In this document: in pieces, positions 8,700-32,501 of the stretch | Position numbering within the stretch: the stretch's first letter is position 1 | Layout: each line of letters opens with the position of its first letter | Assembly: GCA_963664225.1 (NCBI GenBank) | Contig: OY760937.1 | Span: 1-64,000 of the forward strand | Origin: Verrucomicrobiia bacterium | GTDB taxonomy: Bacteria > Verrucomicrobiota > Verrucomicrobiia > Limisphaerales > UBA1319 | Reading direction: 5' to 3' | DNA: 64,000 nt | Notes under the pieces: generated by a model | Told to the model about the DNA's origin: nothing | The model's input: the letters and a program-made list of their open reading frames with translations, nothing else | Databases searched by the model: none | Position numbers and translations under genes: made by a program

Positions 8700-9406
8700 A
8701 ATATCCAAACATTCTTGTTAGTGTTCGCACCCCAAAGCCGAGATCGCGGCCTGCTTTCAGCAGCCTCGACCAGAGACCCCATAAACGATTCCTGGCTTTA
8801 GCAATCTCACTTTTTGTATGCGCCGCCCACGCCCAAGATTCGTCTCCCTTTGCGCCCATGCCAAGCCTTGAGCACGCGCCTGCATTACCAACCCTTCCCG
8901 ATCCGCATGCACTCTTGTCCACAAATTGGAACATGGGCTTCACTCTGGGCGCAGGCTTCGGTGTGAGTGACATGGGCAGCGCTGAATCACACCATCTCAC
9001 GGCAGCTACGCTGCACGTTGGAAAACTGCTGGAGTCGGGAAGGCCGCTTCTCCGCCATGTGGAATTGGCCGGCGAATTGTGGAGTGGCGCACAGTTTCAC
9101 CCCGATAGCGCCTACTTGGTTGGGCTCACGCCGGTCGCGCGCTATCATTTCCTGCCAGGCTCGCGGCTGGACCCATTTATTGACGGCGGCGCCGGTGTCA
9201 CGGCAACTGACATTGGGCGCCCAGACTTGAGCACAACTTTCGAATTCAATCTCCAGGCGGGAGTCGGGTTTCACTGGGTCTTGCGGAAGAATCTCGCGCT
9301 CACATTCGATGGGCGCTACATCCACCTGTCCAATGCGGGTATTGACCAGCCTAATCACGGCGTTAACTCGTTTCTGTTCAGCAGCGGCCTGACTTGGTTC
9401 TTCTAA
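8696..9406 (+). CDS. acyloxyacyl hydrolase / lipid A 3-O-deacylase (PagL family) beta-barrel
   Basis: YIHLSNAGIDQPNHGVNS catalytic motif, LSTTFEFNLQAGVG, C-terminal Phe. Confidence 0.85.
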   Translation: MKYPNILVSVRTPKPRSRPAFSSLDQRPHKRFLALAISLFVCAAHAQDSSPFAPMPSLEHAPALPTLPDPHALLSTNWNMGFTLGAGFGVSDMGSAESHHLTAATLHVGKLLESGRPLLRHVELAGELWSGAQFHPDSAYLVGLTPVARYHFLPGSRLDPFIDGGAGVTATDIGRPDLSTTFEFNLQAGVGFHWVLRKNLALTFDGRYIHLSNAGIDQPNHGVNSFLFSSGLTWFF

Positions 9407-9465
9407 GAGTTTCTCCAGATGAAAACAATAAAGCAACAGGCTCAAGATAATGTCGGAGTTGTGCC

Positions 9466-10089
9466 ATGAAAAAGAATTCCCGATCGTCCCCTCCAGAGCC
9501 TTCACGGCAATCGATGCATCCTGTGAGGAAGCCCGCCCAAGAGGACATCCACACGCCAAGGCAAGTGCGAGCACTCATAGCCGACGATTCTACTTCCGGG
9601 CTAAAAGCCCTCGCTCGAATACTAACGCTCGATGCCAACATTTTACTCGTCGGCACCGCGACCGACGGCTGCCAGGCAGTCCGACAGACTTCCATCCTGC
9701 AGCCGGAATTGGTTCTGATGGACTATCACATGCCCCACATGGACGGCATAGAGGCCACGCGATTCATAAAGCAGTTCAAGAATCCCCCGTTCGTCATCTT
9801 TGTTACCGCAAACAACACGCCGGAATGCCAGGCGCTGGCCAAGGCTGCGGGGGCGGACGGCTTTGTGGACAAGGGCGGAGACCTGCATGGCCAGTTGCGC
9901 ATGGTCTTCCAGGAGCTCTTGGGCTCGTGTCGGAAACCATTCCTTGCCGCGAAGAATCAGATTCCCAAGGCCTCCGTGGTTGCGGCTGATGAATTATATG
10001 AAACTCCTCAAACAAATGTTTATGCAGACCGACAATGCAAAAGCACCCGATATGTGGCCGGTGTGTGGCCAGGCATTATCTGCAAATGA
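9466..10089 (+). CDS. response regulator receiver-domain protein
   Basis: ALIADD, LVLMDYHMPHMDGIEAT, VIFVT, GADGFVDK; no recognisable output domain. Confidence 0.85.
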   Translation: MKKNSRSSPPEPSRQSMHPVRKPAQEDIHTPRQVRALIADDSTSGLKALARILTLDANILLVGTATDGCQAVRQTSILQPELVLMDYHMPHMDGIEATRFIKQFKNPPFVIFVTANNTPECQALAKAAGADGFVDKGGDLHGQLRMVFQELLGSCRKPFLAAKNQIPKASVVAADELYETPQTNVYADRQCKSTRYVAGVWPGIICK

Positions 10090-10255
10090 GCAACTGGTTT
10101 TTGAGGACTCGCGCATTGGGCCTATCGGCCTTGCTCTTCCTCCTGCAAGGCACATGAGCGAAGGTGGTATCGTCGAAAACGAGAGACATCCTGCATGATG
10201 CCCGCATCGGCGAGGCTTCGGAATCCCAGCCCCCATTGAACATTGAGACAAAGGC

Positions 10256-10558
10256 ATGAAGAACAAACTAATACCAACCGTCATCTGTGTGCTGGTGCTC
10301 GTGATGATCAGCCCAACCCCAGCGTTCGCGTCCTCTGAGTGGGAGTCGGACGCGGTCTCGGTCGTGGTCGATGTGACGGTGGCACGTCCGATCACCTGCG
10401 CCCTGACCCTACTTGGATCGGCAGTGTTTGTGGTCAGTCTCCCTGTCACAATCCCATCGGGAAGCGTGAAAAAAGTGGCGCACGCGCTGGTGTTGGTGCC
10501 TGCTAAAGACACGTTCACCAGGCCGGTCGGCGATTTGGACAACTTCTTGGAGGATTGA
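10256..10558 (+). CDS. small exported/membrane hypothetical protein
   Basis: Signal peptide (...PAFA) followed by VARP...LVLVPAKDTFTRPVG. Confidence 0.7.
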   Translation: MKNKLIPTVICVLVLVMISPTPAFASSEWESDAVSVVVDVTVARPITCALTLLGSAVFVVSLPVTIPSGSVKKVAHALVLVPAKDTFTRPVGDLDNFLED

Positions 10559-10777
10559 CCGAGATGCAGGCGAGTAAGTGCACTGTTTCGTGATGAGGGG
10601 CAAGTGCTCTGGATCAGGATCCATTTCCACCCACCTTTCTGAGCCTCGCCGCCCAAATTATGGGGTGTGTTATCTTTTGAATTCAGTAAAGATTATGGAA
10701 AGATTGGTAAAAATCGTTTGTTGTTTTGCTGTTGCCGCTAAAATGGTGATCTGATATGATCGCTAGCTTTAGGAGTT

Positions 10778-10971
10778 ACCCTTTCCGGAAAATATTGCCG
10801 TCTTCCAGCAATTCTTCCAAATATCCATACTTCCTGCATGATATAACAACCACCAGTCGGACAAATTAAAAGAAGGAGAAAGACAGACGGTTCGAAAGAA
10901 GCGGTAGATATCGTTGACTAAAATGTCATTATCGTGTTGTAATGTTCTAACATCATCCACGACACCCAGCA
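10778..10971 (-). repeat. Repeat R1: att-like direct repeat homologous to the 3' end of the LSR at 22470-24311
   Basis: Shares the invariant core AGACAGACGGTTCGAAAGAAGCGGTAGAT (+ strand) and the tail ATCCACGACACCCAGCA with R2-R4. Confidence 0.9.
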
Positions 10972-11080
10972 CGAAGTTTTCTGGCTTTATTGAGCCATTT
11001 GTAAAAATAGGGGGGAATGGGCAATCGGACTCAACCTCTAAACACCGTTCATCCTCGTACTGCGTTCACCTAGAATCGAG

Positions 11081-11224
11081 CTATAGACCCAATTCTTCCT
11101 CGAACAACTCTTGGCTTACATCCCCAAGTCTTTCCTTGATCTCATCGATTTGATCTATGAGGAAATTAAGCTTTTTCACCGGACTCAATTGCCGAGTGTA
11201 ATAACCTACATCATTGTTTTTCAT
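11081..11224 (-). CDS. 47-aa micro-protein, copy A (MKNNDVGYYTRQLSPVKKLNFLIDQIDEIKERLGDVSQELFEEELGL)
   Basis: Below the ORF-track cut-off; paralog at 21022-21162 keeps start, stop and frame with synonymous or conservative changes. Confidence 0.7.
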   Translation of the reverse strand: MKNNDVGYYTRQLSPVKKLNFLIDQIDEIKERLGDVSQELFEEELGL

Positions 11225-11378
11225 AGGCTTTGAATTATTCCACTCACAGTCCGACTATTTCAGTGAACAAAGTTCCGTGGTGAATATGAACTTTGCACGA
11301 TAAGGATATGCCTGAAGTATGTTTGAGAGTAGACGGCAATGTATGCCGTTTGGGGTATGATAATTAATCGCTTTTCCA

Positions 11379-11789
11379 ATGTCATTTCTTCAAAAAAGCG
11401 GTGGTATAATTATGCCAGGGAATCACCTAATGATTAAACAGTCATTCTATTTAAACAAAATGCAAAAATATTCAGTTCAAGAATTCAATGATGATATGCA
11501 AAAAGTGGTCAAATTGATTGAAGATCACAATGACGACGAAGCCCGCAGTTATTTCAATGCGGTCGTATATCAAAAATATTCTGATATCCAAGGATCAGAC
11601 AGCGACAATCCTCTCTCAATAGTTATTCTATTTTTCTTCGATTTGGACGAATATTTGAATAATGAAGGGGCGCGAACACTGGGAGTAACTTCGCGCGAAT
11701 ACATCATCGGTTCTTTCTACAGCGATTACCGGGATGCTTTAACGGAAGCGCTTGTGTTTGAGCAAAAAATCAAATCTAAGCTGCGATAG
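11379..11789 (+). CDS. hypothetical protein (cassette cargo; start may be 11460)
   Basis: 136-aa ORF in AT-rich DNA, acidic and helical. Confidence 0.55.
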   Translation: MSFLQKSGGIIMPGNHLMIKQSFYLNKMQKYSVQEFNDDMQKVVKLIEDHNDDEARSYFNAVVYQKYSDIQGSDSDNPLSIVILFFFDLDEYLNNEGARTLGVTSREYIIGSFYSDYRDALTEALVFEQKIKSKLR

Positions 11790-11811
11790 TTCTGTATCGT
11801 TATATTAATAT

Positions 11812-12036
11812 TTACTTTTTGTTGTAGCTGCGATCCGAAGACTTATCCCCGCCGCTGTATTCTTTGTAGTGACCGGTTGACCTGCTCAAATCGTATGAAC
11901 GATGAGTGTGCTCACTACCCGACGTTGGAGTGATCTTGTCGCCTCGAACGTGATCTCGGTCACTGTTACTTTCCCTGACCTTGGTGCTTCCTTCAGAACC
12001 AGAGTCAGACCTGAAAAGTGTGCTCCAAAAGCCCAT
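11812..12036 (-). CDS. small hydrophilic hypothetical protein (cassette cargo)
   Basis: 74 aa, starts MGFWSTLF; SD-like GAAAGG upstream. Confidence 0.55.
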   Translation of the reverse strand: MGFWSTLFRSDSGSEGSTKVRESNSDRDHVRGDKITPTSGSEHTHRSYDLSRSTGHYKEYSGGDKSSDRSYNKK

Positions 12037-12186
12037 AAACTTACCTTTCTACCAATACAATCGATTTATTTGTCATTGCCCGTTCGGTCAATAAACCGTG
12101 CGGACAGCATAAATTAATCCTGCATTTTCCATATTTCAAATAAAACATTATTAACGCAAATAACGGCACGATCCAAGCGAAGTTTG

Positions 12187-12378
12187 ACCCTCCCGGCAAA
12201 TTTACCCGTCTTCCATCAATTCTTCCAAACATCCATACTTGGAGCATGATACAATAACCACCAGTCGGACAAATTGAAAGAAGGGGACAGACAGACGGTT
12301 CGAAAGAAGCGGTAGATATCGTTGACTATAATGTCATTATTGTGCTGTAATGTTCTAACATTATCCACGACACCAGCA
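12187..12378 (-). repeat. Repeat R2: att-like direct repeat
   Basis: Same invariant core; tail ATCCACGACACCAGCA. Confidence 0.9.
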
Positions 12379-12561
12379 CTCTTAAACAGCACCATATAAG
12401 CTGTGCTGGGAAATAATCCCTTCGTTAAGCCACAGTTTTGTTGGCTGTTTACTTTTTTGGCAAAACATGACCGGAGGAAAACCGGTAAACACCGGTTGCA
12501 AAGTAAACAGTGAACGCAGATACGATTGTACGTTTGCCTGGCTCGTGATAGCGTTTCCGCC

Positions 12562-13035
12562 ATGCCAGACAATCCAAGAATATCAGGAAGGGCCTTGAAA
12601 CATTTGAAGAAGATTTCAGGGCGATCTGCGAATATCAGCGATGAGGCGATTTACGATTTGGGCAAGCGTCTCCTCACTCTTTGTGACGTTTTGACTGAGC
12701 CCAAGGCGGTTTCCAACGATACCCCTGAATTGTCGAATGATGAGCAGGCGGCGATGGAAATCATCTACCAAAGATCTAGGAATGGTGAAACCATGCCCTC
12801 GACACGGGAGCTTGCCCGATTTTTGAAATTCAAATCATCGCGATCAGGATTTTTGCTGCTCGTTCGTCTCCTGGACAAAGGTTTGCTCCGGAAGCGCGGC
12901 AGAAGATTGGAATTGATGAGTGAAATTGAAGGGCATCTTGAGATCCAAGGACAGGGTCCGATCCTTGAGGCGCAAATTGTCCATCATGGCCGTGACAATC
13001 AACCTCTGCTGCTCCGGGGTCGAATCAGTGAATGA
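12562..13035 (+). CDS. LexA-type winged-helix protein with an N-terminal domain like the small LSR-partner protein
   Basis: LSNDEQAAMEII...PSTRELARFLKFKSS...LLDKGLLRK. The N-terminus (ISDEAIYDLGKRLL) resembles 24338-24553 (LSDDEAAEIAIRLL). No peptidase domain. Confidence 0.65.
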   Translation: MPDNPRISGRALKHLKKISGRSANISDEAIYDLGKRLLTLCDVLTEPKAVSNDTPELSNDEQAAMEIIYQRSRNGETMPSTRELARFLKFKSSRSGFLLLVRLLDKGLLRKRGRRLELMSEIEGHLEIQGQGPILEAQIVHHGRDNQPLLLRGRISE

Positions 13036-14325
13036 TTCTCGTATTGCGCCCAAGACATTGTTTTTCCAGGTTGCCCTGCCCGTCTTTACCTGCCCCTTCA
13101 TCCATTGCTCGTAAGGCACTGGGAGGGAAATCTGGCCCATAACGTCAACGAGTTGTCCAAGGAGGCGTCGCAATTCAATGGAGGGTTCGTCACAACCGCC
13201 GTTTTTTCCATGCCCACTGCAATGGTAATACGTGTACAGGAGCTTTTTCGGATTCTTCATCGCTCTGATAGCGGTTTTGCACCATGGGCATTGCACTTTA
13301 CCTCGATACGCAAACTTGAAATGACAAATCGAGCATATCAACTGGTGCTTTTCTTCTGCGGTGATGGCTCTGTCGCAGTTCCCACAGCGGATGAGACCGG
13401 TTAGAGCGAAGGTCTTGCGATTCATTGGCCATTTGTAACCACGGGCCATAAGTCGTTGGACTTCTGCATATTCCGTTTCTGTGACCATGGGTATATGTCT
13501 GCCGGTATGCCAGATGCCACTGGCTTTGGGGTATTCGTATCGTCCAACGTAAAAAGGAGAGGTGAATATATTGTAAATCGTGCTTCGCGACATAGGTTTC
13601 CCTCGGACAGATTTAAATCCAAGGACATTGTTAGCGATTTCCCAGACATTTGCTGGTGTGTATTTTTCGGTGAGCATGAGTTCCCAGCATTTGCGAACGA
13701 TGGGGAAGCGTTTCGGGTCTCTGGCGATTGTTTTGTGACCATTGGGATGGGTACGATTCAAATATCCAAGGGGAGTGCGACCTGGGAACCAGCCCATTTC
13801 CGCTTTGGTCTTGAGTCCTCGTTTAACGTTGCGGCTGAGGTCATCTACGTATTTCTGGGCCATGCCGAACTCCAGATACATCCAAACGACATTGTCTTCG
13901 GCCTGGCTGAATGTCTGAACTGGGGTAACGATGGTGAGACCGTGTTGCTTCAAAGCCCAGATGATTGACCCACCATCAACCGGATTTCTTGCCAGACGGT
14001 CGAGCTTCCAGCAAAGAACGCCTTCAGCTTCGCCTTGATATAGCCGTGTCATCATGGAATTGAAGATCGGTCGAACACCTGGTGCTTTTGCTGATTTGGC
14101 CTCAGTCAGCACTTCGAGAATCTGAATGCCCTGTTGTTCTGCAAAACGCTTGAGTTCAATGACTTGAGAATCGATGGAAAGAATCTGACAGTCTTCGGCT
14201 TCTGAGGATTTGCGGCAATACAGAAAATATTTGCGCGTGGTGGGGATTGCTTTGGGCATGGGACGTATGCTACGCCGGACAAGCTTATCTGGCAAATTCG
14301 GTAACTGTGGATTTGCGAGAACCAT
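12844..14325 (-). CDS. large serine recombinase 2 (coiled coil missing; start may be 14259)
   Basis: YCRKSSE (catalytic Ser), WKLDRLARN, LSRNVKRG, PLGY, GRHIPMV, LTGLIRCGNC...YYHC. Confidence 0.9.
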   Translation of the reverse strand: MVLANPQLPNLPDKLVRRSIRPMPKAIPTTRKYFLYCRKSSEAEDCQILSIDSQVIELKRFAEQQGIQILEVLTEAKSAKAPGVRPIFNSMMTRLYQGEAEGVLCWKLDRLARNPVDGGSIIWALKQHGLTIVTPVQTFSQAEDNVVWMYLEFGMAQKYVDDLSRNVKRGLKTKAEMGWFPGRTPLGYLNRTHPNGHKTIARDPKRFPIVRKCWELMLTEKYTPANVWEIANNVLGFKSVRGKPMSRSTIYNIFTSPFYVGRYEYPKASGIWHTGRHIPMVTETEYAEVQRLMARGYKWPMNRKTFALTGLIRCGNCDRAITAEEKHQLICSICHFKFAYRGKVQCPWCKTAIRAMKNPKKLLYTYYHCSGHGKNGGCDEPSIELRRLLGQLVDVMGQISLPVPYEQWMKGQVKTGRATWKNNVLGAIRESFTDSTPEQQRLIVTAMMDNLRLKDRTLSLDLKMPFNFTHQFQSSAALPEQTFVQETNEQQKS

Positions 14326-14429
14326 GGAGAGGATCTCCAGTAGTCCGTGTGAGCTGCGAGAGACAAATTATCTTGGACCGGAGCTCATTGTATCTAGACA
14401 AGGTGCAATGAATCTTGTAGAATTCATAA

Positions 14430-16265
14430 ATGTATATCTCACGACTGGTCATTCGCAACTTCAGGAATTTCAATCACCTTGATGTTCTAATTCGACCGGG
14501 AGTTACTTGTGTTGTCGGAGAGAACAACACCGGAAAAACGAATCTATTCCACGCTCTGAGGCTGGTCTTGGATGTCAACCTCTCATCGTCCTTTCGGCAA
14601 CTAACCGAAAGTGACGTCCATCGTTGTATAAGCTTAAGCAAGGCGCAGCAGGTTCTGATCTCAGTCGAATTGAAGGATTACGCAACAAAGCCAGAAGAAT
14701 GCGCCATGTGCGGGCTTTGGGAAGTTCAACCGAATGTGGCACGGCTAACGTTTCGCTTCCGTCCACAACAGTCTATCCGTGAGGCCATCGCCCGCGAGGA
14801 ACGAGATCCGAATTCATTAAGTTCTGAGGATTATCGGTGGGAGTTGACTTCTGGTACAAGTGGAAGTGAGAACGACCCTTCCACTGTTGAGTGGGATGCG
14901 CCGTGTGGAGTGGCTGTTAGGTTTCAAGATCTTCAGGCCTTCAAGATCGATTTTCTACCAGCGCTACGCGACGTTGAAAGCGACTTGCGCAACGTGCGAA
15001 CCTCGCCTTTGAGCCGGCTACTATCTGTCATGGATATTCCGCAGGAGGAAAGAGACGCACTTGTTGAAATTATTCGAACTGCCAATAGTAATGTCGAGGC
15101 AAGTCCTACGATCCACACGGCTGGCGAAGCTGTGACAACATCGTTCGCAGATACCGCGGGAACCGCCTTTGCACTACCTGTCAGATTGGGAATGATTGCC
15201 CCGACGTTTGCTTCCATCACCCGAAGCCTTACTCTTCTGTTGAGCAATGGTCCCGTAATTGACTTTGATCCGTCCCGAAATGGGCTGGGTCTTAACAACG
15301 TTCTTTACGTTAGTATGCTCTTGGAGTACTTCCGACGACGTATCCTACGACAAGGTACTGCTGGTCAGCTGCTTTTGATTGAAGAACCGGAAGCTCATCT
15401 GCATCCTCAACTTCAGCGTGTGCTTTACTCCAAAGTTAAGGAGAGCGCTTTTCAAACATTTATTACGACTCACAGTACGCACATAAGCTCGGCTTCACCG
15501 TTCGATTCGTTCGTAATGCTCACGGGTGGTGGGGATATGGCCACCAGCTCGACAGTTGCCTCCAGTATCGCGGCCCTCGGTGAATCAGAGAAGGCCGATC
15601 TCGAGCGTTACTTGGACGCTACTCGTTCTACACTCCTTTTCGCACGCAAAGTCATTCTCGTAGAGGGACCCGCGGAGTTGTTCCTGATCCCACCGCTAGT
15701 CAAAGCGGTCATGAATGTTGACTTGGAACGGTACGGAATCTCCGTAGTGCCGATTCACGGTGTTCATTTTACTTCCTACGCTAAGCTGTTCTCTTCCAAA
15801 GGGCTCCGGAAAAAGTGTGTGATTCTAACTGATGGCGATCTTGTGCCAAGCGACGGGACGAGCGAGGACTGTCAATCCGAAGATCAACCGAAACCCACAC
15901 GGCTCAAGGACCTTAAAGAGTTGGAGAACAGCTATATGCGAGTATTCGCGTGCGAAACAACATTTGAGCGTACTCTCGCCATTCAAGGGTTATTGCCTGT
16001 TCTGGAGGCTGGTGCAAAGGAGTTGGAGGCTCCTCGTTTGCAGTCACTTATTGCAAAAGCAATAACCAGTCTCGGAACGAAGAAGAGTGACGCTCGTATC
16101 AAAATACTGGATGGTATTGGCTCTGCAGTTCTGAACACGGCCAAGCGCTTCGGCAAAGCTCGTTTTGCTCAGGTCGTTTCAAAACACTCTGCTTTAGGTA
16201 GCGATCTCCCTCCTTACATTCGGGATGCTGTTAACTGGCTTATTAACGATGATCCTCACGCCTGA
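14430..16265 (+). CDS. OLD-family ATP-dependent nuclease (ABC ATPase + TOPRIM), GajA-like
   Basis: IRNFRNF, GENNTGKT (Walker A), LLIEEPEAHLHPQLQ, TTHSTH, VILVEGPAE, LTDGD. Confidence 0.9.
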   Translation: MYISRLVIRNFRNFNHLDVLIRPGVTCVVGENNTGKTNLFHALRLVLDVNLSSSFRQLTESDVHRCISLSKAQQVLISVELKDYATKPEECAMCGLWEVQPNVARLTFRFRPQQSIREAIAREERDPNSLSSEDYRWELTSGTSGSENDPSTVEWDAPCGVAVRFQDLQAFKIDFLPALRDVESDLRNVRTSPLSRLLSVMDIPQEERDALVEIIRTANSNVEASPTIHTAGEAVTTSFADTAGTAFALPVRLGMIAPTFASITRSLTLLLSNGPVIDFDPSRNGLGLNNVLYVSMLLEYFRRRILRQGTAGQLLLIEEPEAHLHPQLQRVLYSKVKESAFQTFITTHSTHISSASPFDSFVMLTGGGDMATSSTVASSIAALGESEKADLERYLDATRSTLLFARKVILVEGPAELFLIPPLVKAVMNVDLERYGISVVPIHGVHFTSYAKLFSSKGLRKKCVILTDGDLVPSDGTSEDCQSEDQPKPTRLKDLKELENSYMRVFACETTFERTLAIQGLLPVLEAGAKELEAPRLQSLIAKAITSLGTKKSDARIKILDGIGSAVLNTAKRFGKARFAQVVSKHSALGSDLPPYIRDAVNWLINDDPHA

Positions 16266-16566
16266 ACAACTAGCAGCCGTTAACTGCGATACGAACGCCC
16301 TGGTGGAAGCCTGTCCGGGAAGTGGAAAAACGCGTGCGATTGTTGCAAAACTTCTTCGCTGTGTTGAGGAAGTCCAAGACTCCACTCGGAAGGTGGCGGT
16401 TATCACGTACACAAATGCTGCGGTCTACGAAATTGAATCACGGCTAAGAATATACGGTTCCGTTCACGATCTTGACTCATGTGAAGTGTCGACAATTCAT
16501 TCCTTTTGTCTAAACGTATCCGTCAGGCGAAGTGGCTATAGGCAATGGCCGGGCTGAAGTGGTTAA

Positions 16567-16914
16567 ATGGGGGGCGTGAAGCACCGAACTGCATCCTCAA
16601 ATCGATTTCCGCAAACCACATGTGAACAACGTGCCCAATGGATCCTTCGCTATCACCAGAGTGGATTGACGCGGCGCGCCTTTGCTTCTGAGTATGGCAT
16701 CGGATTGTCCACATTGGGGAGGTGGCTCAGAGACCCGGTGCCCACCGCCGTGGAACCACCCGCACTGCCACGCCTGCAGGAAGTCCCTCTGGCTTCCCTG
16801 CTGGGAAATTCGCCTTGGGCTGCGGAAATCACCTTTGCCGACGGGACCGCGGTGCGCCTGACTGGGGACCTGGCCGACCGACTTTTGCAACCCTGGCTTG
16901 GGGCGCGTTCATGA
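16567..16914 (+). CDS. tnpA: IS66 accessory protein TnpA (HTH)
   Basis: SGLTRRAFASEYGIGLSTLGRW; first ORF in the IS. Confidence 0.8.
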   Translation: MGGVKHRTASSNRFPQTTCEQRAQWILRYHQSGLTRRAFASEYGIGLSTLGRWLRDPVPTAVEPPALPRLQEVPLASLLGNSPWAAEITFADGTAVRLTGDLADRLLQPWLGARS

Positions 16915-17246
16915 TCACGCCCACTGCCGCCACACGTATCTTCGTTGCCCTGGCTCCGATGGACTTGCGCCAGTCCTTTAACGGGCTGTGTGCCTGGGTC
17001 CAGGAGTCCTTGCGTCAGGATCCTCTCTCGGGCCATCTTTTTTTGTTCACCAACAAACACCGGAACCGTCTCAAGGCCCTTTACTGGGACGGCAGCGGAC
17101 TTTGGGTCAGCACAAAACGTTTGGAGCGGGGTCGATTTACCTGGCCACAAGGGGAGGGATTGCAGGCAAACTTGCGCGCCGAGGAACTCAGCGCGTTAGT
17201 CAACGGATTGGAGATCCGCGCACGCAAAGACTGGCGGCGAAACTGA
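16911..17246 (+). CDS. tnpB: IS66 accessory protein TnpB
   Basis: DLRQSFNGL, LFLFTN...LKALYWDGSGLWV..KRLERGRFTWP; ATGA overlap with tnpA. Confidence 0.9.
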   Translation: MITPTAATRIFVALAPMDLRQSFNGLCAWVQESLRQDPLSGHLFLFTNKHRNRLKALYWDGSGLWVSTKRLERGRFTWPQGEGLQANLRAEELSALVNGLEIRARKDWRRN

Positions 17247-17312
17247 AAGATTCTTAAAATAAATTGCGTATAACTATTGACATAATAATTTATATTGTTA
17301 TGAGTAATAACA

Positions 17313-18962
17313 ATGAATCCAGCACCGTCACTGACTCCCGAACTTCTGGCTCAGATGCCCGAGTCCTTCCGCGGTGTCGTCCTCCAGGCCGTTGGTCAGC
17401 TCGAAAGTCAGGTGCAGTCTCTGTCCAGCGAGAACAAGCTCCTGCGCCAGAAAATCGATGCCCTGATCCGCCAGTATTTTGGTTCACCCAAAAACGAGAC
17501 CCTCGATCCCAACCAACTGCTTCTGCTCTTGAGCGGACTGGCAGGAACCTCCGCCCCGGTTGCGGCCACCCCGGTCCAATCCGCCCCGGCTTCCAAAGCC
17601 ACGACAAATCGCAAACCGGCCCGTTCGGGGATTCCGGAGAATCTGCCCATTGAAAAGGTGGTGCTGCTGCCCGACGAGGTGAAAGCCAACCCGGACCAGT
17701 TCCGCCAGATTGACCAGCTGATCACACGGGAATTGGACTATGAGCCGGGCCGGTTTTTCTGGAGGGAAATTACGCGGCCAAAGTTTGTGCGTCGGACTGC
17801 GGCGGCCCCGGCCCCCGAAATTTCGCTCACGACACCGGAAGGCAAGCTGCCGCCGCTGGCGTTGGCCCTGGCAATGACCTCGTTGCCCGAGGTCAGGGAG
17901 GTTCTGATCGCGGAGCTGCCCAACCGGCTGATCGAAAAAGGACTGCCGGGAGTGGGCTTGCTGGTCCACTTGATTTTGAGCCGCTTTGAAGATCATCTGC
18001 CCTTTTACCGGCTGGAAAAGATCTTCCGGGAACGACACAGGGTGCCCATCGCCCGGCAGACAATGGTCGATTGGACCGAACGCCTGGCCGATTGGTTCCT
18101 GCCGGTCTATCGCGAGATGGCCGCTGGACTGCGCGCCGCCAAATATCTTCAAGCCGACGAGACCCCCATTCAATATCTGGACCGGGAAGTGCCCGGGCGC
18201 AGTTGCACGGGATACTTCTGGGTGTATGGCCAGCCAGGCGGAGATGTGATTTTCGAGTGGAAGACCAGCCGGGGCCGGGAAGGACCCAAGGCGTTTCTGG
18301 AGACTTTCAAGGGCAAGCTCCAATGCGATGGCTATGGCGTCTATCAATCTTTGGCTAGGGAACGGGAGGATTGGACCCTGATCGGTTGCTGGGCCCATTG
18401 CCGGCGATATTTCCATAAGGCCAAGGATCATGACCGGCACGCGGCCTGGTTTTTGAAGCAAATCAGCCTGCTCTATGAGATTGAACGACGTCTGAGCCAG
18501 CAGAAGGCCGGGCCCAACCTGCGGGAAGCCGTGCGGGCTGCGGAGGCCAAGCCCGTGCTCGCGCGCATTGGAAGGGCGCTGGAGAAAATCGAGCCCAAGA
18601 TTTTGCCCCAAAGCCTTCTGGGCAAGGCCATCCATTATGCCAGGGGTTTGTGGACAGAGTTGAATCAATATGCCCAGTTCGGGGAGGTGGCGATTGATAA
18701 TAATCCGATCGAGAACATAATTCGGCCCACGGCCATTGGGAAAAAGAACTTCCTGTTCATTGGCCATCCCGAGGCGGGCTGGCGAAGCGCCGTGATCTAC
18801 TCGATCCTGGGCAGTTGTCATCGCCATAAAATCAATCCGGCCCTCTATTTGCGTGATGTGCTCAGCCGCCTCCCCAACATGCAGCAAAGTGAGGTGCCAA
18901 CCATTACCCCAAAAGCCTGGGCCAAGGCACATCCCGAAGCGCTCGCACAGTTGCCCAAGTAA
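17313..18962 (+). CDS. tnpC: IS66 DDE transposase TnpC
   Basis: DHLPFYR, QADET, QCDGY, CWAHCRR, IDNNPIE, GKKNFLF. Confidence 0.95.
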   Translation: MNPAPSLTPELLAQMPESFRGVVLQAVGQLESQVQSLSSENKLLRQKIDALIRQYFGSPKNETLDPNQLLLLLSGLAGTSAPVAATPVQSAPASKATTNRKPARSGIPENLPIEKVVLLPDEVKANPDQFRQIDQLITRELDYEPGRFFWREITRPKFVRRTAAAPAPEISLTTPEGKLPPLALALAMTSLPEVREVLIAELPNRLIEKGLPGVGLLVHLILSRFEDHLPFYRLEKIFRERHRVPIARQTMVDWTERLADWFLPVYREMAAGLRAAKYLQADETPIQYLDREVPGRSCTGYFWVYGQPGGDVIFEWKTSRGREGPKAFLETFKGKLQCDGYGVYQSLAREREDWTLIGCWAHCRRYFHKAKDHDRHAAWFLKQISLLYEIERRLSQQKAGPNLREAVRAAEAKPVLARIGRALEKIEPKILPQSLLGKAIHYARGLWTELNQYAQFGEVAIDNNPIENIIRPTAIGKKNFLFIGHPEAGWRSAVIYSILGSCHRHKINPALYLRDVLSRLPNMQQSEVPTITPKAWAKAHPEALAQLPK

Positions 18963-20719
18963 CCGATGCCTTGTTGCGGGTGACTTCTGAAAGTTGCCAT
19001 ATTCGCCTTTCACGCCGCCAATCTAATCAGGCCAGCCCCACATTGCCTATTGCCACTTCGCCTGACGGATACGTCTAAACAATATTCTCAGCCGCTTTTA
19101 CTGGCGGATTGAAGGATATGAGACGGGATTTAAGCTCATGGCACCTGACAGCGACGAGTTCCGCGCAATTGTTCATGAACTGTGCCAGGACTTTAGCTTG
19201 CGAGTCTCTTCTGTTAAAGAAGAGTTCGAACGACTAACTCGCGCACCAGACGGCGAACCGGTTCTTAGCCGTAGTTCGGGTCTCTCTCGCGAAATTGCTC
19301 TAGAGTTTTGGAACAGGTTGCGTGCGGTACGAGCAGTGGACTTTTCAACCCTGCTCTACATTACGTACCGGCTTCTGAATGATTACCCCAGTCTCCCACA
19401 CGCTCTTGCATGCCGCTTCGAGTGGATTCTGGTGGACGAATTCCAGGATACTACAGACCTACAGGTCGAAATCCTTAGAAAGCTTCACAATGATGGAAAC
19501 GCTAAGTATTTCCTTGTCGGTGATCCGCATCAATCTATTTTCGGTTTTGCGGGAGCGCGCCCCCATTTGATGTCAGAGTTCGCTACTTACATCGGTGCGC
19601 GAAGGGACTTTCGTCTTTACCACAACTGGCGCTCAAATCCTCAAATAGTGGCACACGCGGAATTACTGCGTCCGCGTGATGTCCCTATGGTCGCGAGTGG
19701 GCAAAGTGTAATCAATCCTCATGGGCCGCAATACGTTCATGTCGAAAGCGTAACCAATGCTCTGCAGGACCACTTTTTACCGGGATTGCTTGACCTCGGC
19801 ATTGAATATGGCAACGCCGCGATTTTGGCCCCCGACTGGTTTACCTTATTTCCGATTGGCCGCTTCTTACGCGATTACGGGATTCCCATCATTGGTCCAG
19901 GTGCTAGACCTTATCGAGGCAGCCAACTATTTGCGAGACTGGCAGAGTATGTTTGTGCTTATATTGAAGATCCACAGCCACGGCTAGTGCGTAACATACA
20001 AAGGGAATTGCATCGGCTTCTACTCGAGATAGCAGGTATAGACAGATATGATATTCTAGGCTACACCGGCGCAGTTACTGTGTTTCGCATTTTGCATGAA
20101 GGGCAACGCTTGAGGCTCGCTGTTCCTTCGGCGGAGCAGTGGCTAGTTCGAGCTGCGGCCGAGTTCAGCAACATTCTTGTCGCAGATGGAGTGTTACCAG
20201 TCTCTGCGAGCAACTTGCTCAGCGAATCCGCAGCTGTAATCTGTGAACAGATGCGCAACAGCCGTGACATCGATTTTTCCAACATGACGGTTAGTGATCT
20301 TGGATTGTTTGCCGCGACAGACCAAAGCCTTCAGTTACTTACCATACATGCGGCCAAAGGAAAGGAGTTTGACGCTGTGGCTTTGGTTGGGTTGCATGAA
20401 GGACAACTTCCGAATCGGCGTGCGGAGTCTGTGGATGAGATTGACGAGGCTAAGCGCCTATTATATGTCGGCATTACCAGAGCTAAACGCTTTCTGCTCT
20501 ACGTCACTGATCAAGGAAGATCAACAAATCGTCCCTCGCGCTTTTTAGGAGGTGATGGACTGAATGTGATTGATAACTGTTAACGGACAGTGTGCCGCAT
20601 GGAAGCCTCAACCGTGTTCTGCTTGTTGTTAGTAGGGCTTTGAATACTTTTAAACCAACATCGAAGTTGCTGCCGTCGGCATATCTGTCAGACTTCTTAT
20701 ATTTGCAAAGCGCTTTCTT

Positions 20720-20913
20720 GCCACCTCCAGCAAACTTTCACTCCTACCATCAGTTATTCGAGTGGTCCATACTTCCAGCATGATACAGTAACCACCAGTC
20801 AGACAAATTGAAAGAAGAGGACAGACAGACGGTTCGAAAGAAGCGGTAGATGTCGTTGACTAAAATGTCATAATCGTGTTGTAATGTTCTAGCTTCATCC
20901 ACGACACCCAGCA
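20720..20913 (-). repeat. Repeat R3: att-like direct repeat; homology with R1 continues ~390 bp further right
   Basis: Same invariant core; 20913-21300 aligns with 10971-11360. Confidence 0.9.
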
Positions 20914-21021
20914 AAAGTTTTCTGGCTCTGTTAAGCCAAATGTAAAAGTAGGGGGGGATGGACAATCGGACTCGATCTCTAAATACCGCTCATTCTCGTA
21001 CTGCGTTCACTTAGAATTGAG

Positions 21022-21162
21022 CTATAGACCCAATTCTTCCTCGAACAACTCCTGATTTACATCCTCAAGCTTCTCTTTGATCTCATCAATTTGATCGATG
21101 AGGAAATCAAGCTTTTTCACTGGACTCAGTTGTCGAGTGTAATAACCTATATCACTTTTCAT
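21022..21162 (-). CDS. 46-aa micro-protein, copy B (MKSDIGYYTRQLSPVKKLDFLIDQIDEIKEKLEDVNQELFEEELGL)
   Basis: Paralog of 11081-11224 in the same position relative to the repeat. Confidence 0.7.
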   Translation of the reverse strand: MKSDIGYYTRQLSPVKKLDFLIDQIDEIKEKLEDVNQELFEEELGL

Positions 21163-21442
21163 AGGTTTTGTTTTATCCCACTCACAGGCCGACTATTTCT
21201 GTGAACAAAGTTCCGTGGTGAATATGAACTTTGTATGACAAGAATATGTCCGAAAGGTATCTGATAATAGACGGCAACGTTTGCCGTTTGTGGCAAGATC
21301 GTTACTATTATTTACCAATCCATAATTGCGTCATATCTTAATGTAATATATTGTAATTAAAAGAAAGACGTCTCTGTCAAATTGTGCATAATTTTGCGTC
21401 AGCTATCAGCATGATTGTTAGTGAGACGATAGCGAGTGGTGA

Positions 21443-21795
21443 TTAAGCCCAAACTTGCAAAGAGCAATAGATCACCCAGCCACCTAGGATAGCAAGATAA
21501 AGTAGAACAATAATTGGATATAAAAGTCTGCCAATTACTTTCAAGTCAAGGCAACGGCGGAGCCCTGGAATTTGACACGAGTTATTATGAATTAAAGAAC
21601 ATTCAATTGATATAGATTCAAAGCAAGAAGAGCAATCGTTGCAATTGTCAGATGCCACCAGAAACGATTGGCCTCCTCTCTCCATTTTTCCCAATGGAAT
21701 TTTAGCCATTCAAGTTCAACTTTGTTTTTTTCCGACACGATTAGCAAAACATCGTTTATCCGACACAAATGTTCAACTGAAAAGATTTCAGTCAC
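21443..21795 (-). pseudogene. small two-TM membrane protein, apparently split over two frames
   Basis: Overlapping ORFs 21592-21795 and 21443-21709 each supply one hydrophobic helix. Confidence 0.35.
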
Positions 21796-21815
21796 TCATC
21801 TGGTCCCTGTGAGGG

Positions 21816-22352
21816 TTACAGATAGCCTTTGAATTTCCATCCAATTCTTGCGTAAAGCTCCCAAATGAAAAAGAAGAATCTATTACGCGTCCACCATTGC
21901 GTTGATAAGATTTCATAGGGTACTGACGATACATTCGGGAGATTGATGGTAAACCCGATTTTCTCAGCCACCCAAGAGCATCTGAGAATATGCGCAGGAT
22001 GAGCTACAATAATTGCCTGTCGCAAGTGAGTATTATTGCAGAATTGCCAGGCCTGGCAAAGCACTTCGTACGAAGTTATGTGAGATTGGTTATCATTCTC
22101 CGAAATCACAAGTACAGGTTGAATCGGGATTTTGAGTTTTGTAATTGCTTCAGCCACCTCTCTTTGTGCGATTACTGGAATATTATTCGAAGCCGACATT
22201 CGATAAATTATACGAGCGATTTCTTCATTGCTTACACCCGGACTTTCGCCTTTATTCTTGTGGTTTGCTCCAAACGACATTCCTATGATTACCTGTGCAT
22301 TATAGAGTGGGTCAAGATCGGGAACATAATTCCATTCACATATTATCCTCAT
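21816..22352 (-). CDS. DUF218/YdcF/ElyC-like protein (cassette cargo)
   Basis: TSYEV...QAIIVAHPAHILRC...WELYAR resembles the DUF218 C-terminal motifs. Confidence 0.55.
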   Translation of the reverse strand: MRIICEWNYVPDLDPLYNAQVIIGMSFGANHKNKGESPGVSNEEIARIIYRMSASNNIPVIAQREVAEAITKLKIPIQPVLVISENDNQSHITSYEVLCQAWQFCNNTHLRQAIIVAHPAHILRCSWVAEKIGFTINLPNVSSVPYEILSTQWWTRNRFFFFIWELYARIGWKFKGYL

Positions 22353-22440
22353 GATTACATTATATTATCATATTCATGAAGTTGAAGTTCGCTATCCATC
22401 CGTTCTTGGCCAGAACAACTTCTTGTATGTCATCGTATTG

Positions 22441-22634
22441 CCTTTTGCGGCAAATTGTGACCCCTACCCTCAATTCTTCCGAACATCAATACTTACAACA
22501 TGATACAATAAACACCAGTCGGATATCTTAAAAGAAGGAGACAGACAGACGGTTCGAAAGAAGCGGTAGATATTGTTGACTAGAATGTCATTATCATGTT
22601 GTAATGTTCTAGCTTCATCCATGACACCCAGCCA
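22441..22634 (-). repeat. Repeat R4: att-like repeat forming the 3' end of LSR 1
   Basis: Encodes WLGVMDEART...RKN-stop; + strand tail ATCCATGACACCCAGCCA. Confidence 0.9.
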
Positions 22635-24311
22635 ATGAGCATCATCGACTGTTAATATTGGATTTCGCCCATACAGCGAAACGATTTTATCCGGTTCGAT
22701 TGAATCCTTTTTAGAGTCATGGGTAGTTAGTGCATTTTCCAATATCTCAAACGGTTTTATGGCTTCAATCATGAGTTGTTTGTCCTGGAGGAAAAAGTTC
22801 GATCCAATCGTCGCCAGAATCCTTTTTTTGGTTTTGGAATCGCCTTTCGTAAAATCTTCGCGGGCCGTGCTGGCGAATTCGAAGAATTGCTCTGAGAGCT
22901 CCAGCCATTTGGTCACGCGATGTCCGGTGTCATTAAGCTGTTCTTCCAGACGACTCTTTTCATTCAGTAGGTCTGCCCTTTGCCGTCCGTATTCCTCATT
23001 CGATAACAGGCTGCCATCGCCGTTTTCAGGCGCGGTTTGGAGTTTGATCAGGTTGTCGATTCGTTGAAGACAAGCTTTGTAAGACCGATTCCTCACATCA
23101 ATATCCTCGTCTCGGTTCGTTGATTCCTGTTCATGGAGCAAACGCAGGTATTTGAGCGCGTAATCCTTGAAATGCGCGGAAATATGAATTTGCGACAGGA
23201 GCGCATCAATTTGGTCTTCGATTTTCTTGCTGCTAATGCTTTTTTGAGAGCAATGTGGGTTTTTGCTTTTGGTGCAGTGGTAATAAGTGTAGGAGCGAAT
23301 TGTGGGGTTTGCCATGTTCTCAATGGGAGTTCGGCAACGGGGGCATTCTTTTAAATGTCGATATGCGAATTTGAAATGGCAATTGGTGCACACGAGCTGG
23401 TGCTTTTCCTCAGCGGTCACCATCGATTGGCATTCACCGCAACGGATGAAGCCTGTAAACGGAAAATCAGTGTGAATGCTTGGCCTGGGGTTGCCGTTGC
23501 GGCCAAGCAAGACTTGAACCCGATCATATTCCTGTCTGGTCACCATCGGCTCGTGCTTTCCTTTGTGCCACTGACCGCTTCCTTTCGGTGATTCGAACCA
23601 GCCTGAATAGAAGGGGTTATTGAAAATATGGTATATCGCGCTCCGGCAAAGGGGCTTGCCACCCGTTTTCCGGGTTTGACGCGTGCGAAAGCCCCAATCG
23701 TTATTGACGAGGTCAAGGATTTTGGGCGGTGTATGGAGGCCGGTTAACATTAAAACCCACATGCGGCGAAGGATTTGGAAGCGTTCAGGATCTTTGATGA
23801 GGATCTTTTCTCCTGTCGACATGACGGTGTTGTTCAAATATCCAAGTGGGGCGACACCAGGATACCAGCCATTTTCGATTTTGGTTTTCAGGCCGCGCTT
23901 CACGTTGCGGCTCAGATCATCCACGTATTTTTGGGCCATGCCGAACTCGATATACATGAGGATTACGTTGTCATCCCCGTGGCTGAAATTCTGGGCAGGC
24001 GTCGCGACATGGATGCCGTGTGTCTTGATCGCCCAAATGATTGAACCACCATCCACCGGATTGCGCGCCAAGCGGTCGAGTTTCCAGCAGATGATACCGG
24101 AGACTTCCCCGCGATATATGCGTTGCATCATTGCGTTGAACATCGGTCGCCCGGGTTCCTTGGCTGATTTTGATTCTGTCACAACATCGGCAACCGTAAA
24201 TCCATATTTATTGGCAAGTTCTTGAAGTTCACGGGTTTGGGATTCAATGGAAAGGACCTGCCGGTCTTCGGCTTCTGATGATTTGCGGCAATAGATGAAG
24301 TATTTTGGCAT
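22470..24311 (-). CDS. large serine recombinase 1 (catalytic, recombinase and zinc-ribbon domains with coiled coil)
   Basis: YCRKSSE, WKLDRLARN, LSRNVKRG, GKHEPMV, FTGFIRCGEC...YYHC, long coiled coil. Confidence 0.95.
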   Translation of the reverse strand: MPKYFIYCRKSSEAEDRQVLSIESQTRELQELANKYGFTVADVVTESKSAKEPGRPMFNAMMQRIYRGEVSGIICWKLDRLARNPVDGGSIIWAIKTHGIHVATPAQNFSHGDDNVILMYIEFGMAQKYVDDLSRNVKRGLKTKIENGWYPGVAPLGYLNNTVMSTGEKILIKDPERFQILRRMWVLMLTGLHTPPKILDLVNNDWGFRTRQTRKTGGKPLCRSAIYHIFNNPFYSGWFESPKGSGQWHKGKHEPMVTRQEYDRVQVLLGRNGNPRPSIHTDFPFTGFIRCGECQSMVTAEEKHQLVCTNCHFKFAYRHLKECPRCRTPIENMANPTIRSYTYYHCTKSKNPHCSQKSISSKKIEDQIDALLSQIHISAHFKDYALKYLRLLHEQESTNRDEDIDVRNRSYKACLQRIDNLIKLQTAPENGDGSLLSNEEYGRQRADLLNEKSRLEEQLNDTGHRVTKWLELSEQFFEFASTAREDFTKGDSKTKKRILATIGSNFFLQDKQLMIEAIKPFEILENALTTHDSKKDSIEPDKIVSLYGRNPILTVDDAHWLGVMDEARTLQHDNDILVNNIYRFFRTVCLSPSFKISDWCLLYHVVSIDVRKN

Positions 24312-24337
24312 CGAAATGGATGGGGAACATTCTCATG

Positions 24338-24553
24338 CTAACGTACGGGAAACGGGCGCGTCAACGTACTAGGAATTTGATGAAATAACTCGGCGGTGTC
24401 AACGGGGTGGATGAGAATATCGAAAAACCTCAACAACCGAATTGCGATTTCCGCAGCTTCGTCATCTGAGAGGACAATGCCGTATTCTTCTTGATAGATC
24501 GTCTTGAATTCGGCGATGGCCTGTTGGCTGAGTTTGATGTCGGTTTCCATCAC
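24338..24553 (-). CDS. small LSR-partner protein
   Basis: LSQQAIAEFKTIYQEEYGIVLSDDEAAEIAIRLL; directly upstream of and co-oriented with LSR 1. Confidence 0.7.
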   Translation of the reverse strand: MMETDIKLSQQAIAEFKTIYQEEYGIVLSDDEAAEIAIRLLRFFDILIHPVDTAELFHQIPSTLTRPFPVR

Positions 24554-24997
24554 CTGAGTTTATGGAAAACCGGCTGAGTTCATAGGGGGGAAGGCTTGTC
24601 GTTGGGGACATGTTTTCCAGATGTGTGGATGGCGCAATGTTATGAATTGAAATATTGCCAAAGGCTTGGCTCCGCCCATTCCATCTCAAAACATCTGAAT
24701 CCGAACCAAAGTCGCAAGACAGGTTTCAAGCGATTTTACATCGTAAATTGCATTGGATCTTTTCTTGAGGGGTTACCCCGTAATTGTCCAACCCTCTGAG
24801 ATATGGTGCGTGCGTAAACGGTGTTTTTATCGACCATGTATCGGATTGGCTGCCCAGGCCGCGTTCAGAAAAGTAAGGACTCGCTGGACCGGAGCGTAAC
24901 TTTAAATATTTCGGTAGCGATGATGCGATTTCTATGTTGCATGAGCAAGCCAATGTATATAATGGTCCGTTGGAACAAATTGGGAAGCAAGGTAATC

Positions 24998-27256: not shown

Positions 27257-27294
27257 ACCCAACTCATTCAAATAATCGAACAACACACGATACC

Positions 27295-29765: not shown

Positions 29766-29817
29766 TATAGTTAAATGATCTCGAACCACAAACCATTAAC
29801 CCAAATCTATCATTAAA

Positions 29818-31346: not shown

Positions 31347-31364
31347 AACAACCTTAGACCCACT

Positions 31365-32474: not shown

Positions 32475-32501
32475 GGATCATCAACCCTAAACCATAAACC
32501 G

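Follow-up and report, generated by a model that had tools for sequence, protein, structure and literature searches.

Probable site-specific tandem accretion of gene units at an attachment site inside a large serine recombinase reading frame in a Verrucomicrobiia bacterium

The first 64,000 nucleotides of contig OY760937.1 (GenBank assembly GCA_963664225.1; here called the window), from a Verrucomicrobiia bacterium, harbor a row of gene units separated by four direct copies of one sequence, R, and one of these copies is the 3' end of a gene for a large serine recombinase (LSR), LSR1. We interpret the region, with a probability of about 0.7, as a stack of units, some autonomous and some not, that accreted in tandem by site-specific recombination at an attachment (att) site inside the recombinase open reading frame (ORF). 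The evidence that carries this reading is observed directly: the relationships between the sequences, their recurrence in other genomes, and the position of R, which is the one that a tRNA-Gln gene has in relatives. Read in the direction of LSR1, that is, from right to left, the window holds a helix-turn-helix (HTH) gene and a RuvC-like gene, a short motif named site C, a CRISPR-Cas locus, a gene for a 71-aa protein, LSR1, and the copy R4. After R4 come two small ORFs, a shared module (module 3), R3, the gene gajB (split by an IS66 element), gajA, a second recombinase gene (LSR2), a convergent LexA-like gene, and R2. Small ORFs, module 1, and R1 follow R2, and the DNA beyond R1 is unrelated.

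Repeat R and the recombinase family

In a repeat search, R emerged as a single family with four direct copies, each 187 nt long, at 10780-10966, 12188-12374, 20722-20908, and 22442-22628, spaced by 1408, 8534, and 1720 nt, with the later copies 89, 82, and 84% identical to the first. A DNA profile was made from 16 R sequences, of which 12 came from other loci (six in metagenomes and two in genome contigs) and four from the window itself. It matched all four window copies on the minus strand with E values of 1e-48 to 1e-52, which are partly a matter of construction, as the window's four copies were in the profile. The profile matches delimit R1 (10776-10971), R2 (12184-12374), R3 (20718-20913), and R4 (22438-22633); beyond these, the profile search found no full R copy in the 5,783,426-base genome. 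The edges of the four copies are sharp and common to all. R consists of the last ~53 codons of LSR1 and a conserved, non-coding tail of ~35 nt after the stop codon. R4 is the copy that ends LSR1, and the other three are orphans, i.e., they have no LSR body before them. R1, with a tRNA-like start, 49 conserved codons, and a site C tail, forms the last junction of the array, and R2 abuts the LSR2/LexA-like element at its right end, a place taken by tRNA-Gln in two related loci (L044 and L114). An earlier, sequence-only reading of the window had described four ~190-bp repeats in the same orientation, the last of them being the 3' end of LSR1, and an invariant 29-bp core, all of which was borne out: R4 spans the LSR1 stop codon, and the core is present in every copy (10881-10909, 12289-12317, 20823-20851, and 22543-22571). 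Within the first ~32 to 33 nt, R3 pairs up with R4 and R1 with R2. The site patterns of the four window copies are too sparse to locate a crossover.

LSR1 (22470-24311, minus strand) encodes a protein of 613 aa with the Pfam domains Resolvase, Recombinase, and Zn_ribbon_recom, and LSR2 (12844-14325, minus strand), likewise identified by Pfam, encodes a short LSR of 493 aa. Both contain the catalytic domain PF00239 (E = 4.9e-21 in LSR1 and 5.8e-20 in LSR2) followed by PF07508 and PF13408, and the LSR proteins gave weak, subthreshold matches to the XisF, CcrB, and CcrC models. LSR2 lacks R and, in the alignment, also about 60 to 75 residues that LSR1 has around positions 405 to 480; this stretch would correspond to the coiled-coil insert of the zinc-ribbon domain.

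Among 8000 candidates scored, 6253 database proteins were related to LSR1 at E ≤ 0.001. The best 120 are 59 to 92% identical to it, and many of them come from metagenome-assembled genomes (MAGs) of Verrucomicrobiota. Only one close relative was found among viral contigs, which argues against the elements being typical phages. The homologs share a well-aligned body, a hypervariable linker of ~35 residues, and a conserved tail that opens with G-x-x-D-D-V-R-T. Sorted by pattern, the tails of the best 120 fall into the window type (30 proteins), a shorter type (40), a cysteine-rich type (10), and a fourth type (14), with 24 unsorted; two have a tail encoded by antisense tRNA-Gln, and a third protein (P0087) has a tail of this kind that the pattern missed. 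One linker type occurs with differing tails, which indicates that tails have been exchanged close to the G-x-x-D-D-V-R-T motif. The protein P0001 is 92% identical to LSR1 over 455 residues, and its R is closest to R2 (44/49, 90%), followed by R1 (43/49), R3 (41/49), and R4 (37/49, 75.5%). As the tail of P0001 is thus nearer to R2 than to the R4 of LSR1 itself, R appears to have been exchanged as a module. It does not seem to be common as a free-standing gene, since only eight stand-alone small R proteins were found, one of which is the window's own ORF.

R evolves as a coding sequence under purifying selection. The ratio of nonsynonymous to synonymous substitution rates (dN/dS) was 0.07 to 0.38 among seven metagenomic orphan copies (19 defined pairs; two pairs were saturated), 0.11 to 0.80 among the window's four copies, and 0.20 and 0.50 in the loci L045 and L105, respectively. 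Furthermore, R has two patches with no or almost no variation at third codon positions, which suggests constraint on the DNA as well. One of them, site A, is a palindrome at the V-R-T codons. The other, site B, lies at the Y-H-F-F-R codons and equals the 29-nt core; its third codon positions are invariant across 16 copies, and several LSR tail types diverge just after it. The core is thus a conceivable crossover point; however, relatives meet tRNAs at the start of R and not at this core. As single-stranded DNA, R showed no fold beyond chance in six copies (z = -1.14 to +1.46 versus shuffles). An AlphaFold model of the R peptide consists of three helices, with a mean predicted local distance difference test (pLDDT) score of 75.6.

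The R tail is a conserved, non-coding palindrome of ~30 nt, TTGCC-N6-GGCAA (site C), and homology among R contexts stops right after it. The same ~30-nt motif stands upstream of LSR1 at 36846-36869 (minus strand), and at least 12 loci (30 or so relatives by another count) have a second site C ~430 nt upstream of the LSR start, between a divergent HTH gene and the gene for the 71-aa protein. It is also found between such divergent HTH and small-protein gene pairs inside the cassettes of L019 and L022. Site C may serve as an operator for the HTH protein or as another site of recombination.

All four R copies also contain, on the strand opposite the LSR, TTGACT and TGTAAT separated by an 18-nt spacer (e.g., at 10910-10950, plus strand). 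These motifs may represent a sigma-70-like promoter pointing away from the R tail; they lie within coding sequence, so the resemblance may equally be due to chance.

tRNA targets and R copies in other genomes

Eighty loci were fetched around LSR homologs from species genomes, and in 19 of them ARAGORN placed the LSR stop codon inside an antisense tRNA. The tRNA is tRNA-Gln in L025, L036, and L048; tRNA-Asn in L042, L054, L067, L071, L074, L076, L083, and L096; tRNA-Trp in L069, L070, L077, L081, and L088; tRNA-Asp in L072 and L098; and tRNA-Ser in L093. At two further loci (L052 and L085), a tRNA lies at, or just before, the LSR end.

R and tRNA-Gln occupy equivalent positions. tRNA-Gln starts at locus position 11680 in L025 and 11678 in L036, and R starts at 11678-11679 in the R-bearing loci. 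Alignment revealed an LSR 3' flank common to L025, L048, and L028 that continues into tRNA-Gln in L025 and L048 and into R in L028. The first ~17 nt of R resemble the 3' end of tRNA-Gln and are followed in both sequences by TCGAAC, which belongs to the T-loop in the tRNA and to the center of site A in R; taken together, the first ~20 to 30 nt of R are like a tRNA 3' end. The most telling finding is that the LSR1 clade targets tRNA genes that run antisense to the recombinase, with R holding the position that tRNA-Gln has in relatives.

The LSR2/LexA-like element provides an independent case. Homology of its right end, past the LexA-like gene, extends to a single point in the window, L044, and L114, beyond which R2 follows in the window and tRNA-Gln in L044 and L114. 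In L114, as in the window, the R copy belonging with the LSR2-type element is at the element's other end. At another locus (L103), an orphan R (10002-10197) is followed by about 2 kb without a recombinase and then by tRNA-Gln (12192-12263), an arrangement that reads as a recombinase-less unit sitting at the tRNA. L025, with an R of the short type (4739-4833), about 5 kb of further sequence, and then an LSR fused to tRNA-Gln, looks like a single autonomous element.

Metagenome contigs were scanned with an alignment of five R peptides, namely, the window's four and that of L028. The scan returned 19 loci, four of which are one sequence and two another. R forms the end of an LSR in three loci (L104, L105, and L107), and orphan copies, preceded by unrelated sequence in every case, occur in at least nine distinct loci (L102, L103, the second copy of L105, L106, L108 to L111, L112, L113, L114, and L115/L116). 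All metagenomic copies have a common start and a common end about 38 nt past the stop codon. Neither R DNA nor the R peptide had a match in nine other genomes of the family or in 400 other sampled genomes of the phylum, which does not amount to absence, as the relatives lie in MAG and metagenome collections.

A second R downstream of the LSR was present in five of the 80 loci. It lies 1.55 kb from the LSR in L045, with NYN-domain genes in between, 1.1 to 1.4 kb away in L019 and L022, where it is partly decayed and frameshifted, and 8.3 kb away in L043; in L050, the C-terminal part of the LSR is displaced by 3.4 kb. The metagenomic locus L105 carries two R copies 1.5 kb apart. A direct R repeat at the junctions, as in the window, therefore also occurs in L045, L105, L019, L022, and L043. 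Paired copies within an array share their first 32 nt (L045) or 33 nt (L105) without a difference and are about 75 to 82% identical thereafter. The sequence-only reading had raised the recurrence of R-cargo-R arrangements with varied cargo beside LSR homologs as a point to be checked, and such arrangements were indeed found in L045, L105, L019/L022, L043, and L103. The cargo of the arrays is largely defense-like (Gabija, NYN, Shedu, AbiEii, and CRISPR-Cas).

Two related genomes (L106 and L110) carry R together with a downstream element of ~240 nt on opposite sides of the same aminotransferase/pentapeptide block. A xerC-like gene is in swapped position between them, and L110 has a second 240-nt element beside a distant LSR.

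Probable accretion at a tRNA-type site and its alternatives

In the mechanism that we propose, the att site of the LSR1 clade would lie inside the end of its own reading frame, and its chromosomal partner would be the 3' part of an antisense tRNA gene, which for the closest relatives is tRNA-Gln. R would be the element-side sequence to the right of the crossover, made up of a tRNA-mimicking start, about 50 codons, and the palindromic tail of ~30 nt. Integration would carry R to the far end of the unit, after which the recombinase frame of the left unit would read on into the tRNA or the R copy of a following unit, and repeated integration at the same, regenerated site would stack units head to tail. 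This mechanism would explain the sharp 5' edge of R at the tRNA gene end, its tRNA-like start, the orphan copies, the arrays, tail exchange between close recombinases, and R-bearing units without a recombinase. The crossover itself would most likely fall within the first ~30 nt of R, a placement that has an even chance of being right. In the LSR direction, the stack in the window would consist of the LSR1 element (with HTH gene, RuvC-like gene, and CRISPR-Cas), R4 with two small genes and a module, R3 with Gabija, LSR2, and the LexA-like gene, R2 with small genes and a module, and finally R1. Lacking a recombinase of their own, the two units with a module would depend on one supplied in trans. 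Catalysis of the joins by LSR1 or LSR2, the order in which the units arrived, and any present-day activity are what we infer from this arrangement of sequences.

The sequence-only reading had proposed mostly non-autonomous cassettes stacked at an att site inside the LSR gene. The proposal is largely supported, in that the repeats are the junctions, units 1 and 3 are free of a recombinase, and the site lies in the LSR frame, but the site is the tRNA-type site of the family rather than a peculiarity of the LSR1 gene. Unit 2, moreover, is no cassette; it represents a separate type of element with a short LSR and a LexA-like gene that sits at tRNA-Gln in L044 and L114.

Several observations weigh against accretion at the start of R. 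Known serine integrases are reported to join attP to attB and to be inactive on the product sites, so joints between two R copies would depend on the regenerated site being accepted as a target again. Next to R1 in the window there is no tRNA or tRNA remnant, and the DNA there is unrelated; the array may be outside its canonical setting, having moved as a block or been rearranged. Of the genome's two tRNA-Gln genes, one at 178.9 kb and the other at 3.90 Mb, neither is accompanied by an island, and an inversion between 10.8 and 179 kb, judged by eye only, may have parted the array from the genome's tRNA-Gln. The stretch of ~8 codons that precedes the proposed crossover is not the same in LSR1 and its 92% identical relative, and four loci (L021, L028, L035, and L041) have a full LSR-R and 10 kb of downstream sequence but neither a second R nor a tRNA. 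A crossover at the R start also leaves unexplained the 29-nt core and site C, which occurs upstream of the LSR too, and the CRISPR-Cas block parts the upstream site C from the sequence that neighbors it in relatives. Finally, neither circles nor empty sites were found in the assembled contigs of sequencing runs, which break at the repeats. Among the contigs of four runs compared, the region is whole in those of two public runs, broken at the repeats as would be expected of repeats. In runs of two organism labels, 94 to 99% of the words sampled from the region were present. One 255-nt contig of run X10 (depth, 4.35) joins 11262 to 21201, i.e., module 1 to module 3, across 33 shared letters, and is taken as an assembly artifact or a module-by-module homologous deletion.

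Of the 120 close homologs, 94 fall into the four tail types and only two to three have tRNA tails, which could point to a dedicated cassette platform. LSR1 would then offer a fixed capture site in its gene, R cassettes would be non-autonomous by design, R x R would be the normal reaction, the tRNA link would be ancestral only, and the system would be integron-like but run by a serine recombinase. The purifying selection on orphan R copies, the 32- to 33-nt blocks identical within an array, which suggest cassettes matched to their recombinase, and the mostly defense-like cargo, from Gabija to CRISPR-Cas, would suit such a platform. We nevertheless consider it unlikely, as none of six R copies forms an attC-like hairpin (z = -1.1 to +1.5), units contain several genes on both strands and in one case their own LSR, no promoter-plus-attI arrangement is apparent, and the same unit types occur at plain tRNA-Gln without a neighboring LSR1-type gene (L103, L114, and L044). 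The integron analogy drawn in the sequence-only reading is therefore a loose one. The window shares with integrons an ordered array of mostly recombinase-less units, each with a recognizable, sharp-edged site. In contrast, integrons rely on the tyrosine recombinase IntI, on attC hairpins, on cassettes with a single promoterless ORF in one orientation, and on a fixed platform with attI and a promoter; the window has a serine recombinase that is no fixed platform gene, R copies without an attC-like fold, and multigene units on two strands.

Joints might also be made at site C instead of the R start, each unit ending with its own R and R being a linked recombinase end or an accessory binding region. 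Site C is conserved though non-coding, homology ends right after it in every context, and its second copy upstream of the LSR recurs in relatives at the same distance (~430 nt, at least 12 loci); in the window, CRISPR-Cas separates the upstream site C from what is its neighboring sequence in relatives. The R copies of L113 and L114 are 97% identical with their differences clustered inside site C, and module plus R are flanked by inverted site C copies. Nevertheless, joining at site C is quite improbable in our view. The LSR-attached R of L019 and L022 has no site C, yet a cassette follows; LSR2-type elements have R at their far end and not behind the LSR (window and L114); relatives are joined to tRNAs at the start and not at the end of R; and the motif between divergent HTH and small-protein genes inside cassettes has the look of an operator. 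That the repeats are merely remnants of LSR genes that were duplicated, decayed, and then reshuffled through homologous recombination, no site-specific process being involved, is highly improbable: the copies are 82 to 89% identical and long enough for RecA-type exchange, the X10 contig joins the two modules across 33 letters, and some distal copies are frameshifted (L019 and L022), but the same 5' and 3' edges recur in more than 10 unrelated contexts, where copies that decayed independently would be expected to have ragged ends, the frame of most orphan copies is still open and under purifying selection, and the 5' edge of R coincides with the tRNA gene end in relatives.

Going beyond accretion at a tRNA-type site as such, the last ~50 residues of the recombinase might be an exchangeable module that reports the integration state and sets activity or direction. 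The recombinase would finish with an R peptide, for which at least four conserved tail types exist, in free or stacked copies and with an antisense-tRNA tail in tRNA-joined copies. Satellites with only R and cargo would exploit this switch, and a serine integrase would assemble defense islands one cassette at a time, up to a whole CRISPR-Cas locus. We regard this proposal, all its parts taken together, as possible but rather doubtful.

Related arrangements are known from several systems. Composite islands of the staphylococcal cassette chromosome mec (SCCmec) at rlmH include pseudo-SCC units that have no recombinase. In Mx8 intP and in SSV1-type integrases, the integrase gene itself contains the att site, and some mycobacteriophages have integration-dependent immunity. 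As in these phage and virus cases, integration in the LSR1 clade would alter the 3' end of the gene spanning attP, so that the protein differs between the free and the integrated state; in contrast, those cases concern tyrosine recombinases or repressors, and the window has a serine integrase. We know of no report of tail exchange as direction control in serine integrases.

The Dehalococcoides ssrA islands, among the closest cases described, use the CcrB-like serine recombinase DsiB and are arranged in tandem downstream of the small RNA gene ssrA, between 20-bp direct repeats of its 3' end, and some are without an integration module (PMC3146451). The window resembles the islands described there in having a large serine recombinase beside the att site, tandem units, direct repeats, and some recombinase-less units. 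In contrast to their 20-bp repeat, through which the reading frame does not run, the repeat in the window is ~190 bp long, encodes the last ~50 residues of the recombinase, and is under purifying selection. Furthermore, the target in the window's relatives is a tRNA, and no RNA gene is present at the end of the window array. In a work on accretion among ICEs (integrative and conjugative elements) and IMEs (integrative and mobilizable elements), cis-mobilizable elements (CIMEs) are att-bearing units without an integrase that can be moved in cis or in trans (PMC5704250). An att direct repeat at every junction and recombinase-less units are found in the window, the latter also in L103; anchoring at the 3' end of a conserved host gene is seen in relatives (19 of 80 loci, at tRNAs) but not in the window, with nothing of the kind beside R1. 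CIME and SCC cases mostly involve tyrosine integrases and short repeats in a host gene, whereas the repeat in the window is part of the recombinase gene. Read as accretion, the region resembles SCC islands, ssrA islands, and CIMEs more than integrons.

A search of full-text literature, with most subscription journals outside its scope, yielded no serine integrase with a frame spanning its att site, no such tRNA-targeting clade, and no R-type satellites. A study on small serine recombinases as defense markers (PMC13552941) does not cover the R-type system. The data point to a large, undescribed, and mostly verrucomicrobial clade of serine integrases that target tRNAs, read through their own att site, and have small recombinase-less satellites. 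They also suggest a concrete, testable route for the assembly of islands from defense genes (Gabija, NYN, Shedu-like, and CRISPR-Cas) in Verrucomicrobiota and further phyla that have received little study. The swap of the C-terminal tail upon integration is a possible built-in direction control, and the natural pairs of short sites and matched enzymes may be of interest as serine-integrase tools.

Units, cargo, and neighboring DNA

A module of ~390 bp adjoins R1 and R3 on their plus-strand side (module 1, 10972-11366, and module 3, 20914-21304, both minus strand), and the two modules are 85% identical overall (87% over 245 nt and 83% over 149 nt). Each contains a micro-ORF on the minus strand (11081-11224, 47 aa, and 21022-21162, 46 aa), with mostly conservative differences between the two, and an inverted site C, present as a similar sequence at 11331-11357 in module 1 and as the exact motif at 21273-21296 in module 3. 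The cargo of unit 1 (11379-12247) consists of ORFs at 11379-11789 (plus strand, 136 aa), 11812-12036 (minus strand, 74 aa), and 12041-12247 (minus strand, 68 aa, doubtful), and that of unit 3 (21443-22352, minus strand) of ORFs at 21443-21709 (88 aa) and 21816-22352 (178 aa). Neither the micro-ORF nor any of these five small cargo ORFs had a match in Pfam, NCBIfam, or PADLOC or a relative in the fetched loci. Units 1 and 3 contain no recombinase domain, and the units hold two to five ORFs on both strands. With Rfam at gathering thresholds, no match was obtained between 10 and 25 kb, and elsewhere only tRNA-Pro and a group II intron were detected. The sequence-only reading was right about the composition of the units, i.e., the shared module with its micro-ORF beside R1 and R3, the absence of a recombinase from units 1 and 3 (according to Pfam and family searches), and the presence of LSR2, a LexA-like gene, and a Gabija pair in unit 2, the LexA-like match in the window being weak.

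The LexA-like HTH gene of unit 2 (12526-13035, plus strand; E = 0.005) is convergent with LSR2. Its homologs in L044 and L114 are 66 and 40% identical, respectively, and the one in L114 matches Pfam LexA_DNA_bind at 9e-8. The Gabija pair (14430-20583, plus strand) was identified by PADLOC and has the makeup expected of this system, GajA (ATPase and TOPRIM) beside GajB (UvrD-like helicase). It comprises gajA (14430-16265) and gajB, the two parts of which (16225-16557 and 19138-20583) are split by the IS66 element. Scores were 770.6 bits for GajA, 523.3 bits for the C-terminal part of GajB, and 132.7 bits for its N-terminal part. The IS66 element has inverted repeats of 42 nt (16506-16547 and 19041-19082). 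In runs X6 and X8, the depth of the IS66 contig was about 5 to 10 times that of its flanks, indicating several IS66 copies in the genome.

The CRISPR-Cas locus (24821-36614, plus strand) contains cas3, cas5d, csd1 (cas8c), cas7, cas4, cas1, and cas2 and an array at 32979-36614 with a period of ~72 and about 50 spacers. All seven type I-C cas genes were matched in Pfam, and the locus was classed as a complete type I-C system. It separates the upstream site C from the gene for the 71-aa protein and LSR1, and since relatives have the upstream site C only ~430 nt from the LSR side, the locus looks like cargo inserted at this site. The gene for the 71-aa protein (24338-24553, minus strand) lies just upstream of LSR1 and is conserved at that place in 51 fetched loci. 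The HTH gene (36939-37295) and the RuvC-like gene (37292-37855), both on the plus strand, are conserved core partners of the LSR family and were found in 33 and 29 loci, respectively; the RuvC matches are weak (3.3e-7, NCBIfam). The RuvC-like gene would be a Holliday-junction-resolvase-like gene carried by a serine-integrase element.

Beyond these genes, a block of low G+C content (43 to 45%) at 37914-43348 encodes a 217-aa ORF, a 1105-aa protein with a weak HAD-hydrolase match, and a 472-aa protein with a metallo-beta-lactamase fold. PADLOC gave no match in this block, which may be an undescribed defense or cargo system. Further to the right, the gene for the Mg-chelatase-like protein ComM is split. 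Its C-terminal part lies in the window (44355-44927, plus strand), and its N-terminal 358 codons lie 1.57 Mb away (genome positions 1611834-1612910, minus strand), adjoining a third LSR of 500 aa and ICE-type genes for a Replic_Relax relaxase, two TrwB-like ATPases, a primase, ArdC, and RadC. This looks like the trace of an ICE insertion into comM that a large inversion broke apart afterwards, or it may reflect a misassembly; the R array may lie inside or beside this ICE. A group II intron at 45188-47130 was recognized by Rfam matches to D1-D4 and to domains V-VI and contains a reverse transcriptase/maturase ORF (45315-47000). On the other side of the array, contigs of three runs join 9459 to 10192, omitting 732 nt of the response-regulator gene, and deviate at many letters from 9385 to 10411; either the flank exists in another, diverged copy, or the DNA beside R1 varies between strains.

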